DNA of 64,000 nucleotides from an uncultured virus (IMG/VR IMGVR_UViG_3300020056_000010) (IMGVR_UViG_3300020056_000010); one strand, 5' to 3'; counted from the first letter of the stretch, positions 14,112 to 34,055 are shown. The notes: generated by a model from the sequence alone, not told the origin. Program-made: numbers and translations.

Positions 14112-14187
14112 TGGTGCCCCCACACGGACTCGAACCGCGGACCCACAGATTACAAATCTGTTGCTCTACCAGCTGAGCTATAAGGGC
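14112..14187 (-). tRNA. tRNA-Thr(UGU)
   Basis: 76-nt cloverleaf, ACAGA-TT-TGT-AA-TCTGT arm, GGTTCGAG T-arm, encoded CCA. Confidence 0.95.
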
Positions 14188-14192
14188 ATTAT

Positions 14193-14327
14193 CTATTTAT
14201 TAGACTGGCGATATTTATACAACTTTACATAGTATGCAAACGACCTAGGGTAGTTTCGAGGATTCGGTAAAGTGATTCCTCGACTACCCCAGTACTGTAA
14301 AAATAAAACTATTTGTTTGTCTGTCAT
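14193..14327 (-). CDS. Small hypothetical protein between the tRNAs (44 aa)
   Basis: Hand-translated MTDKQIVLFLQYWGSRGITLPNPRNYPRSFAYYVKLYKYRQSNK. Confidence 0.5.
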   Translation of the reverse strand: MTDKQIVLFLQYWGSRGITLPNPRNYPRSFAYYVKLYKYRQSNK

Positions 14328-14334
14328 AATAAAC

Positions 14335-14411
14335 TGGCCTGCGCTGAGGGATTCGAACCCCCGACCTAGTGCTTAGAAGGCACTTGCTCTATCCAGCTGA
14401 GCTAAGCGCAG
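14335..14411 (-). tRNA. tRNA-Arg(UCU)
   Basis: 77-nt cloverleaf, AGTGC-CT-TCT-AA-GCACT arm, encoded CCA. Confidence 0.95.
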
Positions 14412-30928: not shown

Positions 30929-31030
30929 AATTTACGTAATCAATGGGCGTAAATTTGACTGTGTTTTAGATGCAATTGAGTATCGGGATCATCTCGATGC
31001 TCATTATATACGTGTAGAATGGCACGAATA

Positions 31031-31074
31031 TGTTACAAAAGTGTCATAAAACTTTTACGTAGCATTCATAAATA
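31031..31074 (+). promoter_or_regulatory. Pho-box-like repeats plus late promoter variant
   Basis: TGTTAC/TGTCAT/TTTTAC at 11-bp period, then CATAAATA. Confidence 0.6.
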
Positions 31075-31151
31075 TTGTAGGCAGAGGGTAAAGCTCTGCC
31101 TTTTTTATGTGAGCGACGGGGTAAATCCGTCAAACAAGAAGGAGAAGTTTA

Positions 31152-32117
31152 ATGGAACTACTCACATTATGGAGCCTTGTCGGCTTCCTGCTTGCTGCAT
31201 ATGCGGTTATAGCGAACGATTCAGTGCAAACTCTCGGCACGTGGATGGCATCTAACAATGAGAGATTTAACTATAAAGTACTATGGGCAGCGGCTTCTGC
31301 TGTTCTTCTAGCAACACTCTGGTACGGTTGGAGTGTTAATGGTGGCGACATTAGTTATGGTCGTTTGAATAAGATCCCGTGGCAAGAAGTACAATGGTAC
31401 CACGCCGCAGCACCAGCTATTCTTGTTGCTTTAACACGAATTGGTGTACCAGTTTCAACATCATTCTTAGTTCTATCAGTATTTGCTTCAACCTTTGTGT
31501 TGGAAAAAATGTTGATGAAATCTATTATGGGTTATGGCGTAGCAGCCTTATTTGCTTACTCAGTATGGTTTGCCATTAATAAGTTTGCTCATAAATGGTT
31601 TGATGAAACTCAACCAGTAAGTGAAGGCAATAAACGTTTTTGGCGGATTGCTCAGTGGGTTGCTACTGGCGGATTGTGGTGGACTTGGTTGTCACATGAC
31701 ATGGCAAACATTGCGGTATTCCTCCCGCGTCAAGTACCTGTAGATCTTATGATTTTGATCTCATTTGTATTTGTCGGTGGTTTGTTCTTTATGTTTAGAG
31801 AACGTGGTGGTAAGATCCAACAAATCGTTTTGGAAAAACATAACACAAGATATGTTCGTTCAGCTACGTTGATTGACTTATTCTATTGGTTGTGTTTATA
31901 CTTCTTTAAAGAGCTAAACGATATTCCTATGAGTACAACTTGGGTATTCGTTGGTTTGCTAGCAGGTCGTGAACTTGCGATGGCTACATACTTTGGTAAG
32001 AAGAAAACAAAATCTGTATTTCCTCTTGTAGCGAAAGACTTTGGAAAGATGATGGTAGGACTTGGAGCTTCAGTTGCTCTTGTACTAATGGTACATTACA
32101 TTATCAATCCAGTGTGA
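31152..32117 (+). CDS. PiT/PHO4-like inorganic phosphate transporter
   Basis: Multi-TM, with duplicated ANDS/HDMAN and PVSTS/PMSTT signature-like motifs. Confidence 0.65.
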   Translation: MELLTLWSLVGFLLAAYAVIANDSVQTLGTWMASNNERFNYKVLWAAASAVLLATLWYGWSVNGGDISYGRLNKIPWQEVQWYHAAAPAILVALTRIGVPVSTSFLVLSVFASTFVLEKMLMKSIMGYGVAALFAYSVWFAINKFAHKWFDETQPVSEGNKRFWRIAQWVATGGLWWTWLSHDMANIAVFLPRQVPVDLMILISFVFVGGLFFMFRERGGKIQQIVLEKHNTRYVRSATLIDLFYWLCLYFFKELNDIPMSTTWVFVGLLAGRELAMATYFGKKKTKSVFPLVAKDFGKMMVGLGASVALVLMVHYIINPV

Positions 32118-32152
32118 CATTTTTGTCAAGTAAAAAAATTTTACAGAAGGGG

Positions 32153-32181
32153 TTGACATTTAACTCCTTTTGTGTTATATA
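32153..32181 (+). promoter_or_regulatory. sigma70-type promoter of the tmRNA
   Basis: GGGGTTGACA-17-TATATA. Confidence 0.7.
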
Positions 32182-32185
32182 TAAG

Positions 32186-32586
32186 AAGTGGACGTTGAAA
32201 CAAAATAAAAACGGATCGGACCGCGGGGCAGTACCGCGCACCTCCACCATAAACACATGAGGATATAATGAATTGGGATTGGCACTGGATTAGTTGGTTT
32301 AAAGGAACACCTTTTCAATGGGGTGATTTTAGATTCAATAGTGGCAAGCCATATAAAAGTTATAGACTTGGACCATTACTTATTCGTGTGTTTATGTAAG
32401 CACATGTGTTTATGATGGGGGTGAACAAGGATCGACGGACGGAATAGTTGAGTGGAGTTCACCGTGTTGACCTACGTTATTCGGTCAAACAAACTAAATG
32501 CAAACGATAACTTTGCACCATCTGGTTACGCACTAGCTGCATAACACAGGGGGCTGGCCACTTGCCTAGCAACAGAAAAGTGGCAC
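32186..32586 (+). ncRNA. ssrA: Circularly permuted two-piece tmRNA
   Basis: Acceptor piece ends CACCTCCACCA (32239-32249). Coding piece starts GGGGGTG (32417), giving a G3.U70 pair. Tag ANDNFAPSGYALAA* at 32500-32544. Confidence 0.92.
32268..32399 (+). CDS. Trp-rich 43-aa ORF inside the tmRNA intervening segment
   Basis: GAGGA RBS; MNWDWHWISWFKGTPFQWGDFRFNSGKPYKSYRLGPLLIRVFM. Confidence 0.6.
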   Translation: MNWDWHWISWFKGTPFQWGDFRFNSGKPYKSYRLGPLLIRVFM

Positions 32587-32623
32587 ATAACACATTTAAT
32601 AAAAGTAATAAGAAAGGGACAGG

Positions 32624-33403
32624 ATGTTTAATAAACTACTAATTACAACAGCATTGGTCTGCGCAGCAGGCTCAGCAATGGCCGCAGACGTTGGCGGTGA
32701 AATTACAACTGAGATTGCAGAAAACGCAGCAGGCAACTGGGGTGCAACAACATCCTTCGACCTAGGTATCGCATCAATGGGTACAGCAGTACCTGCATTT
32801 GCTGCTATTGATTTGGACATGAACACAGACGGTGATATTACCCTTGATGAATGGCAAATTGGTACAGTAGTAAATGGAGATGCAATGATCTCATTCGGAG
32901 ATCAAGGTAATGTTTGGATCGATTCAGAAGACGGTTCAACATTGGCAGATCCAGCCATGAAAGAATCTATTGCAGTTAAAGCCCTTGGAGCAAAAATGGG
33001 TATTAGCTGGAAAGATATCGAAGCGGATGTAACAGAAATCGAAACAGTAGCCGGTATGTACGAAATGAATCTTGGTCTTGTTAATCTACAAGCCGCAGGT
33101 TCATACAACATGGTTACTGAAAACTTTGCGATTGGTTCTCGCAGTGATTATCTGTTGAACGACAATATTGGTCTTGGTGCTGCAATCACTTATGATTCAG
33201 GATCAGAAGATATTGGTTTTGAAGTAGATGCTGGCGCTTACGGTGCTACAGTATTCGTAAACGGCGATCAGGATGAAATGCTTCAAAACGTAGGTGGTTC
33301 TTACACTTACGGCTTCATCGGGCTTGAGCTCGAAGCAGGAGCGTCATACAACCTAGACAGCGAAGAATTGACACCTACTGCATCTGTTTCGTTCAGCTTC
33401 TAA
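32624..33403 (+). CDS. Outer-membrane porin-like beta-barrel (alphaproteobacterial type)
   Basis: AMA|A signal peptide, amphipathic strands, C-terminal SVSFSF. Confidence 0.75.
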   Translation: MFNKLLITTALVCAAGSAMAADVGGEITTEIAENAAGNWGATTSFDLGIASMGTAVPAFAAIDLDMNTDGDITLDEWQIGTVVNGDAMISFGDQGNVWIDSEDGSTLADPAMKESIAVKALGAKMGISWKDIEADVTEIETVAGMYEMNLGLVNLQAAGSYNMVTENFAIGSRSDYLLNDNIGLGAAITYDSGSEDIGFEVDAGAYGATVFVNGDQDEMLQNVGGSYTYGFIGLELEAGASYNLDSEELTPTASVSFSF

Positions 33404-33433
33404 GCTGAGATAAACTTGCAGAAAAAACTTAGT

Positions 33434-33457
33434 AGAGGGGCCTTTCGGGGCCCCTTT
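33434..33457 (+). terminator. Intrinsic terminator with UUCG loop
   Basis: AGGGGCCT-TTCG-GGGCCCCTTT. Confidence 0.8.
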
Positions 33458-33503
33458 GGTCATTATAAATAAAAATGAAAACTTTCATCAGCGGAGGCTT
33501 ATA

Positions 33504-34055
33504 ATGTCACTAAAATTGAAAGAGCTTACATGGGCTCACCACCAATCTGCTGAACGGCGTAAGTTCGCTAAACATCTTATTAGCGGCAAAATTGAGCCTA
33601 AACTCTATCACAAATTTTTATGTTGCCAGTACTTAAACTATGAAGCACTGGAATCTAAAGTAATCATTCCCCCAAATTTACAACCAATTAAAAGGTCCAA
33701 TCGCATTTGGACTGATATTCGTGAGCTTGAAAACGAATATGGATTAGAGCCAGATGGTAACTATCCGCCTTCTGTAGAGAAGTACACCAATCATATACAT
33801 GCACTTGCGGAGTGGGATGCTAACGACAGACTGTTGGCTCATATGTACGTAAGACATTTTGGTGAACTACATGGCGGGCAGATCATCAAAAAGAAAGTGC
33901 CTGGCTCAGGCAAGATGTATGAGTTTGAAGGAGATACTAAGATCCTTATTGAGGAATTCCGCAAACTCTTGCATGATGATATGGCAGATGAAGCTAAGAT
34001 CTGTTTTGACTTTGCATCAGAGTTATTTGATGAGTTGTCTGAAGAAATTAGTTGA
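33504..34055 (+). CDS. hemO: Heme oxygenase
   Basis: LKELT...HQSAE, AHMYVRHFGELHGGQII; late promoter at 33464-33471; GGAGG RBS. Confidence 0.88.
   Translation: MSLKLKELTWAHHQSAERRKFAKHLISGKIEPKLYHKFLCCQYLNYEALESKVIIPPNLQPIKRSNRIWTDIRELENEYGLEPDGNYPPSVEKYTNHIHALAEWDANDRLLAHMYVRHFGELHGGQIIKKKVPGSGKMYEFEGDTKILIEEFRKLLHDDMADEAKICFDFASELFDELSEEIS

Follow-up and report, generated by a model that had tools for sequence, protein, structure and literature searches.

In the circularly permuted tmRNA genes of Alphaproteobacteria such as Caulobacter (RF01849, RF04321), an acceptor piece with an encoded CCA is followed by a spacer and then by the coding piece. The locus described here lies in the window, which denotes the whole 64,000-nt stretch of DNA analysed, from an uncultured virus (IMGVR_UViG_3300020056_000010). 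It shares this arrangement, together with a G3-U pair, a T-arm and a tag ending in ...ALAA, but differs in that its spacer holds a protein gene under selection, whereas the sampled bacterial spacers are 3–83 nt long. Two-piece tmRNAs have been reported in marine and aquatic phages, among them pelagimyophages and the OM43 phage Melnitz, in a paper whose accessible part makes no mention of spacer ORFs (PMC9004378). The tmRNA database paper of 2025, with 79 phage sequences, names, in its available text, only a tRNA-Ala and a repetitive element among what spacers contain, and the terms 'ORF' and 'open reading' are absent from its main text, supplements aside (PMC11915505); a third paper, in its available portion, concerns only the tag frame (PMC10117765). 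No paper on protein genes in tmRNA spacers was found in the full-text literature, older subscription papers on two-piece tmRNA aside, which agrees with the original prediction, made from the sequence alone, that no example had been described.

Intervening sequences of 23S rRNA are cut out by RNase III, unlike the tmRNA spacer. The nearest published analogue found may be considered the one in the 23S rRNA of Coxiella burnetii, a stem-closed insert that bears the S23p ORF and is cut out at maturation (PMC4990558). In the accessible part of that paper the insert is viewed as a selfish element, and the abstract suggests that the S23p protein is not made; its host RNA is helix 45 of an rRNA and it has no sequence relation to the window ORF, which differs further in being under clear purifying selection and in having free-standing relatives. 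Group I introns in tmRNA genes, some of them with homing endonuclease genes, are also removable extra sequence that may include a protein gene (PMC11915505), but they are self-splicing, lie in the T-loop and leave a rejoined RNA, whereas the window tmRNA is unspliced and consists of two pieces. A group I intron or homing-endonuclease insert was tried as an identity for the spacer and rejected, as no intron family is among the four Rfam matches of the window and the insert separates the CCA from the 5' end, a junction that stays open in the two-piece form. A last comparison may be drawn with ArfA, which is regulated through a truncated, non-stop mRNA, in that the spacer ORF of 45 of 51 relatives would lose its stop codon upon processing; the window ORF has its own stop at 32397–32399, and the likeness would be one of resemblance only.

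The tmRNA gene and its spacer

The window comes from a T4-like aquatic myophage with its own two-piece (circularly permuted) tmRNA gene. The neighbourhood is a T4-like replication module containing DNA polymerase, a gp41-type helicase, UvsX, gp32, gp46/47, topoisomerase II and NrdAB. The nearest virus record (G001), a fragment of 58 kb, has a locus identical to that of the window, and no DNA match to window positions 31000–34000 was found among GenBank phages. ARAGORN calls a permuted tmRNA at 32157–32635 (+) with the tag ANDNFAPSGYALAA; among the Rfam covariance models, the gene gives full-model matches to RF04321 (tmRNA_permuted) at 117.6 bits (gathering score 47; 32188–32544, model positions 1–213) and to RF01849 (alpha_tmRNA) at 105.7 bits (gathering score 50; model positions 1–355), and both alignments leave the spacer as an unaligned insert between the two acceptor strands. 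As read from the sequence, the acceptor helix is formed by 5' GGGGGTG (32417–32423) and CACCTCC (32239–32245) with a G-U as its third pair, and the T-arm and encoded CCA lie upstream of the 5' acceptor strand, which is the permuted order. The tag frame found by ARAGORN at 32500–32544 starts without a start codon and ends with a hydrophobic ...LAA and a stop. With 32249 as the last base of the CCA and 32417 as the mature 5' G, the intervening segment (IVS) runs from 32250 to 32416, or 167 nt. The features of the locus are as follows.

32153–32181, plus strand: putative promoter, TTGACA (32153–32158), 17 nt and TATATA (32176–32181), read by eye
32188–32249, plus strand: acceptor piece of the tmRNA, with 5' pairing strand, T-arm, acceptor strand CACCTCC and ACCA (RF04321, ARAGORN)
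32248–32259, plus strand: 5' arm of the closing stem, CATAAACACATG, 12 nt, read from the sequence; paired with 32403–32414 in the centroid fold
32250–32416, plus strand: IVS, 167 nt, outside the mature two-piece tmRNA (Rfam insert)
32259–32263, plus strand: Shine-Dalgarno-like GAGGA, abutting the stem, 4 nt before the ATG, read from the sequence
32268–32399, plus strand: 43-aa ORF (P0001) by translation, Trp-rich (5 Trp) and basic, with its TAA stop at 32397–32399
32385–32396, plus strand: ancestral 3' arm, CGTGTGTTTATG, also the codons of the C-terminal R-V-F-M (from comparison with relatives)
32397–32414, plus strand: 18-nt add-on, TAAGCACATGTGTTTATG, with the ORF's stop codon and a second, perfectly matching 3' arm (32403–32414); missing in the 149-nt form
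32417–32587, plus strand: coding piece of the tmRNA, with acceptor strand GGGGGTG, tRNA-like domain and tag frame 32500–32544 (ARAGORN, Rfam)

The coordinates and the translation confirm the anatomy that had been proposed, namely the 167-nt IVS, its 12-bp closing repeat, the GAGGA and the 43-aa ORF with five Trp, which nearly fills the IVS. The same 167-nt IVS is found in four viral contigs, and an identical 32-nt stretch of T-arm and CCA in ten. The 5' part of the Rfam alpha_tmRNA model aligns over the promoter-like stretch, and a consensus promoter scan gave no call there because of the terminal A of the second hexamer. In the gap separating the upstream 321-aa gene from the tmRNA, a 15-pair hairpin with a T-rich tail (32142–32174) overlaps the promoter-like TTGACA and may serve as the terminator of the upstream gene. 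A 31-nt stretch of G001 (L012, C1:24396–24426) is 87% identical to window positions 32130–32160, just before the promoter-like site, and is possibly a repeated regulatory motif. Two phage tRNA genes, tRNA-Thr(TGT) and tRNA-Arg(TCT), are present at 14112–14411 on the minus strand of the window.

The 43-residue protein and its relatives

The preferred reading, which is held with high though not complete confidence, is that the ORF is a real gene for a 43-aa protein in an exchangeable spacer of a phage tmRNA gene, that it is expressed with the pre-tmRNA, and that the window also carries the collapsed remains of a second spacer. A protein search returned 19 clusters 77–93% identical to the ORF, and a scan of viral contigs located 62 loci that carry it, all metagenomic and many of them near-duplicates from a few phage populations, with 31 unique ORF sequences. 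Every one of the 61 complete copies has a start codon and no internal stop. Across the 31 unique nucleotide versions, the variable columns at codon positions 1, 2 and 3 number 9, 14 and 31, and the Nei-Gojobori method gives a pS of 0.396, a pN of 0.078 and a dN/dS of 0.146 in frame, compared with 1.61 and 0.99 in the other two frames. This pattern points to strong purifying selection on a 43-residue protein, acting on its sequence itself, beyond the act of translation.

A profile search of 1.84 billion representatives extended the family to 42 clusters at E ≤ 1e-3, almost all of 41–92 aa and down to about 35% identity. The proteins, of about 41–60 aa, have the motif W-F-x-G-x-P-F-x-W ... F-N-S-G-x-P-Y-x-S-Y-R-x-G-P-L-L-I-R-V, and the window protein conforms to the looser form W-F-x-G-x-P-F-x-W ... 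F-N-x-G-x-x-Y-x-x-Y-R-x-G-P-L-L-I-R-V. An alignment of 38 members (A2) shows G26 as invariant and a conservation of 90% or more for N24 and R33. Supplied with a diverse alignment, AlphaFold2 gives a predicted four-stranded beta-meander with a mean pLDDT of 94.6 and all five models above 92; a run with a shallow alignment of 20 near-identical sequences (pLDDT 57) was set aside. The intact copies, the in-frame dN/dS, the profile family and the predicted fold together bear out the proposal of a protein gene inside the IVS.

Outside this family, the ORF matched no family in Pfam or PHROGs, a sequence profile search of the PDB gave nothing below an E-value of 0.1, and the best E-value of a Foldseek fold search was 1.7. 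The ESM Atlas returned only unnamed clusters with scores of at most 0.80. A single WD40 blade was considered (best VIA Z 4.4) and rejected as a common arrangement, not a relation. No tblastn match to the protein was found among GenBank phages, where no cultured phage has the ORF, and 185,579 bacterial and archaeal genomes gave ten pattern matches, none of which was confirmed; a query with P0033 returned no relative in the search for related loci. As an unproven guess, the protein could be a small accessory protein that binds RNA or a membrane surface and is made early in infection.

It could be argued that there is no gene here, the conserved spacer being a structured RNA for processing in which the open frame is incidental. 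The spacer region does fold better than its shuffles (z -2.9), and the shorter spacers of relatives are non-coding hairpins. However, third codon positions vary and dN/dS is low in the ORF frame only, free-standing homologues lack the stem, and the AlphaFold2 model is confident. Further, the ORF of L072, which lies outside a spacer, keeps the residues R-V-F through synonymous changes that would break the stem, and these residues are therefore also selected as protein. This alternative is already disfavoured and must be rated as extremely improbable.

The preferred reading of a protein gene housed in the spacer can be followed through the genomic positions of the family. Both tmRNA flanks, the CCA piece and the mature 5' end, surround the ORF in 51 of the 62 loci, and 3 further loci, truncated at contig ends, agree with a spacer location. 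In 49 of the 51 IVS copies, a Shine-Dalgarno-like motif lies 4–16 nt before the start. Two IVS copies, L020 and L024, lack GAGGA (they read ...CACATGGATCAAATATG) and have a different T-arm, but match L022 in all other respects, which makes the tmRNA gene itself mosaic. In the window, the spacing from GAGGA to ATG is short (4 nt) and the site abuts the 12-bp stem, which could hinder translation initiation there.

In four loci (L048, L055, L056, L072) the ORF is preceded by an orphan or degenerate acceptor piece and has a separate tmRNA gene next to it. In L048 (1091–2111), a complete second tmRNA lies about 590 nt beyond the orphan acceptor piece and the Trp-rich ORF, and it matches the beta-type model (RF01850, 104.3 bits) as well as the permuted one. 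Another four (L027, L032, L038, L044) have no tmRNA within 1.5 kb of the ORF, which is there a free-standing small gene whose start or stop overlaps its neighbours (translational coupling). Two of the free-standing copies keep the first bases of a tmRNA 5' end and therefore probably came out of a tmRNA gene; the tmRNA bits retained are GGGG in L038 and GGGGGTCGAAC in L032 and L044. In L027 (785–1650), a partial copy of the 3' end of the ORF (788–812) and a full copy (1501–1647), each preceded by the same 18-nt stretch, flank a 239-aa gene; the small ORF seems to have served there as a recombination site for a gene cassette.

More distant relatives show both linkage to tmRNA and independence of it. 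In all 6 P0035-like loci the ORF lies directly before a permuted tmRNA, and its stop and the gene's first helix overlap; no tmRNA was found within 1 kb of any of 14 P0036-like or 19 P0043-like loci. In L209–L214, a diverged member of 42 aa occupies 998–1126 and the tmRNA begins at 1118, and the stop overlaps the first helix; this position in the 5' leader is a second, different linkage of the protein family to tmRNA genes. Given the free-standing copies and the relatives distant from any tmRNA, the protein needs no tmRNA in cis, though the linkage recurs.

Four salt-marsh metatranscriptome runs, no two from one study, yielded RNA-library contigs that span the T-arm through the ORF (for example 32225–32404 and 32231–32395), most of them derived from close ORF variants; these contigs are taken as presence only, since they carry no information on RNA ends, strand or translation and DNA may be present in the libraries, and uncovered stretches and differences in depth between spacer and neighbours were kept out of the evidence. 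Two contigs of run X4 skip 145–149 nt across the ORF and may derive from ORF-less relatives.

In the expression route proposed here, transcription would begin at the tmRNA promoter with the gene as part of the pre-tmRNA, and this precursor would serve as the template for translation, which would be easiest ahead of synthesis of the 3' arm and closure of the stem. RNase P and the enzymes that trim 3' ends would then cut the tmRNA pieces away from the spacer. In established tmRNA biology, RNase P reportedly forms the coding piece's 5' end, and the CCA end results from tRNA 3' trimming (Keiler et al. 2000, as cited in PMC9004378). The excised spacer may persist as a mini-mRNA, as originally suggested. 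The slot would be expressed, and it would tolerate insertions because the spacer is discarded.

The closing stem and its second 3' arm

The 5' arm of the closing stem has its perfect partner in CATGTGTTTATG at 32403–32414, with which it forms 12 bp. The near-copy at 32385–32396, originally put forward as an alternative pairing partner, does pair with the same arm at all 12 positions with one G-U, and a local hairpin at 32385–32406 competes with the two 3' arms. A survey of 52 unique phage IVSs of at least 36 nt found a terminal helix of at least 7 bp in 50, with a mean length of 10.2 bp versus 5.5 bp after the 3' end was shuffled; the helix starts at IVS base 0–2 and stops 4–5 nt before the mature G. 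The stem-bearing IVSs contain 49 distinct arm sequences, and covariation is therefore indicated. On the strength of this survey, the closing stem is more than chance; it extends the acceptor helix. The ORF sits in the loop of this terminal helix, with the codons of its last residues, R-V-F-M/L, serving as the 3' arm. The IVS ends in TGAT in 45 of 62 IVSs of at least 26 nt.

The window differs from most relatives in having two 3' arms. In 45 of the 51 IVS copies there is a single arm and the frame runs into the mature tmRNA, where its stop ends 8, 13 or 25 nt inside. The window type (four loci and the window) has 18 extra bases, TAAGCACATGTGTTTATG, whose origin is suggested by L017 and L023, in which the same TAAGCACA stands directly after the ORF and is followed by 57 more nt and then by GTGTGTTTATGAT. 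The ORF-less IVSs of L120 and L087 begin with TAAGCACAC and end with GTGTG(T/C)TTATGAT, that of L120 with GTGTGTTTATGAT. By this comparison, L017 and L023 hold two spacers in tandem, and the 18-nt add-on of the window is read as the collapsed ends of a second spacer, a recombination scar; of the earlier suggestions for the duplication, that of an insertion scar fits best, since the 18 bases match both ends of the second IVS in L017 and L023. The near-copy is the older, ancestral 3' arm, and the perfect copy is part of the later add-on. As the add-on supplies its own TAA and a fresh non-coding arm, the bases of the coding sequence and of the processing helix are no longer shared.

The anatomy of the stem invites a regulatory coupling, a wider version of the original suggestion that translation selects the pairing register, in which translation of the ORF and folding or processing of the tmRNA would be mutually exclusive, the ORF gating maturation; in the common 149-nt form, the RNase P cut would also remove the stop, turning the message into a non-stop substrate of tmRNA with ArfA-like feedback. 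Features that could serve such a mechanism are the 3' stem arm made of the last codons of the ORF, the two alternative 3' arms and competing hairpin of the window, the position of the stop inside the mature tmRNA in those 45 of 51 spacer copies, and the ribosome-binding sites of many cargo ORFs, which abut or lie in the 5' arm (AAGGACAC, TAAGGACACTA, AAGGAGATTAG), the Shine-Dalgarno-like motif being part of the arm in several. The argument rests on anatomy, however, and register selection finds no support in the 45 of 51 relatives that have a single 3' arm. Most phage tmRNA genes and all sampled bacterial ones mature without an ORF, the cargo varies from phage to phage, amino-acid sequence is conserved beyond the reading frame, and family members work far from any tmRNA. 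By sequence, processing would remove the stop in the 45 relatives; in the window the ORF's own stop lies 17 nt upstream of the RNase P site, and the non-stop idea is therefore inapplicable to it. A stop also occurs within about 35 nt of the junction in all three frames, so that a stop just inside the tmRNA is the chance expectation. Gating of maturation by the ORF is accordingly rated as unlikely.

Were a mechanism on the shared transcript to link the spacer gene with the tmRNA, as a self-sensing, ArfA-like feedback to which a similarly low probability is given, the placement of the ribosome-binding site at or in the 5' arm and of the last codons in the 3' arm would mean that the precursor is translated only briefly before it folds. 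A translating ribosome would hold back formation of the acceptor stem and cutting by RNase P, and the message of the 149-nt form would be a non-stop substrate of the tmRNA cut from the same transcript. In that case, a role in trans-translation would explain why the family recurs with tmRNA genes, both within the spacer and, in L209–L214, within the 5' leader. An obligatory regulatory role is made less likely by the variable cargo, by relatives that lack the ORF and by the free-standing members of the family, and the preferred reading remains that of a small gene carried in the spacer and expressed with the pre-tmRNA.

Probable exchange of spacers and their varied cargo

The spacer was examined across 80 viral loci with an alpha-type tmRNA 5' end, 75 of which have an upstream CCA piece and T-arm and yield 71 unique IVSs of 5–499 nt. 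Among the 19 unique IVSs of at least 140 nt, 18 have a sense ORF over at least 70% of their length and 2 have an antisense ORF at the same cover; in 10 of the 19 the observed cover is reached by at most 1% of shuffles. The Trp-rich ORF accounts for 3 of these 19, and the cargo of the others is unrelated to it. The unrelated-looking IVS ORFs of L096 and L118 (63 and 57 aa) both pass Pfam DUF6356, of unknown function (43.3 and 33.5 bits; cut-off 24.4), several others encode small hydrophobic peptides, and one encodes a very basic peptide. The longest IVS in the sample, the 499-nt one of L131, has two consecutive ORFs, the second of 120 aa with hydrophobic stretches. In four other pairs of homologous cargo, pN is below pS. 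A still longer spacer of 517 nt (1179–1696) occurs in L212, whose tmRNA is uncalled by Rfam; its 152-aa ORF (1236–1694) ends at the usual TGA-T before the mature G and has a weak HNH match (17.7 bits, below the 21.4 cut-off), and a Trp-rich family member lies in the 5' leader of the same tmRNA. With the same pattern, alphaproteobacterial spacers have a median of 28 nt and none of 70 reaches 100 nt (80 loci were sampled, and the 10 without a CCA piece within 700 nt were left out). The check proposed with the original prediction, which was to look for conservation of the ORF or for variable cargo in permuted phage tmRNAs, is thus positive on both counts, through the dN/dS and through the diversity of spacer ORFs. 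From these comparisons, tmRNA spacers in these phages form a general, exchangeable slot in which different small genes have been captured.

Exchange may be reflected in the mixture of similar and dissimilar segments between loci. Among contigs that share one identical 32-nt acceptor piece, spacer lengths of 9, 85, 105, 149 and 167 nt occur. Over 1 kb upstream, L008 and the window share 99% identity, against 87% in the tmRNA coding piece; for L004 and L010, whose 85-nt spacer lacks an ORF, identity to the window is 94% in the coding piece and about 90% downstream. For 26 unique loci among the 38 of 62 that pass a strict flank pattern, the median identity of the ORF is 0.83, versus 0.72 for the upstream and 0.65 for the downstream tmRNA flank, and the ORF exceeds both flanks in 282 of 325 pairs; this would fit exchange by recombination, and selection alone could also give the same pattern.

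These observations could instead reflect a selfish or hitch-hiking cassette, in which the ORF and its stem arms form a small mobile unit that passes between the tmRNA genes of co-infecting phages, by recombination at conserved acceptor or stem sequences or by homing through endonucleases acting in trans. The ORF would then persist because the spacer is harmless and not because the phage benefits. Such a cassette would account for the ORF being more alike between loci than the surrounding tmRNA, for identical acceptor pieces with spacers of 9–167 nt, and for the change in L008 from near-identity upstream to lower identity in the coding piece; it is also consistent with the tandem spacers of L017 and L023 and the collapsed spacer of the window, with the tmRNA bits kept by the non-tmRNA copies (L038, L032/L044) and with the HNH-like ORF, albeit below the cut-off, that fills the L212 spacer. 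On the other hand, passive hitch-hiking calls for neither strong purifying selection nor a confidently predicted compact fold, nuclease or recombinase activity would be improbable for a 43-aa beta-meander, and the higher conservation of the ORF is obtainable by selection alone. Examined as a MITE or insertion sequence, the insert has inverted arms, but these are the tmRNA processing stem and are common to ORF-less spacers; no direct repeats or target-site duplications are present at tmRNA sites, and flanking repeats of 10 and 14 nt are found at the non-tmRNA sites L027 and L038. A cassette of this kind is a tangible possibility, judged to have somewhat less than an even chance. It is compatible with the preferred account of what the ORF is, and the sole difference concerns who benefits.

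Two-piece tmRNA spacers are regarded as RNA to be discarded, and here the spacer encodes a protein under selection with a predicted fold, so that one transcript is both a messenger and the precursor of a stable RNA. Small genes recur in the spacers of aquatic T4-like phages, including those for DUF6356 proteins, hydrophobic and basic peptides and an HNH-like nuclease. These make up a hidden class of phage small proteins that standard annotation misses, as gene callers and tmRNA annotators skip the spacer and the longest such tmRNA genes, like that of L212, escape Rfam. The locus also offers a compact natural system for the competition of translation and RNA processing on one molecule.
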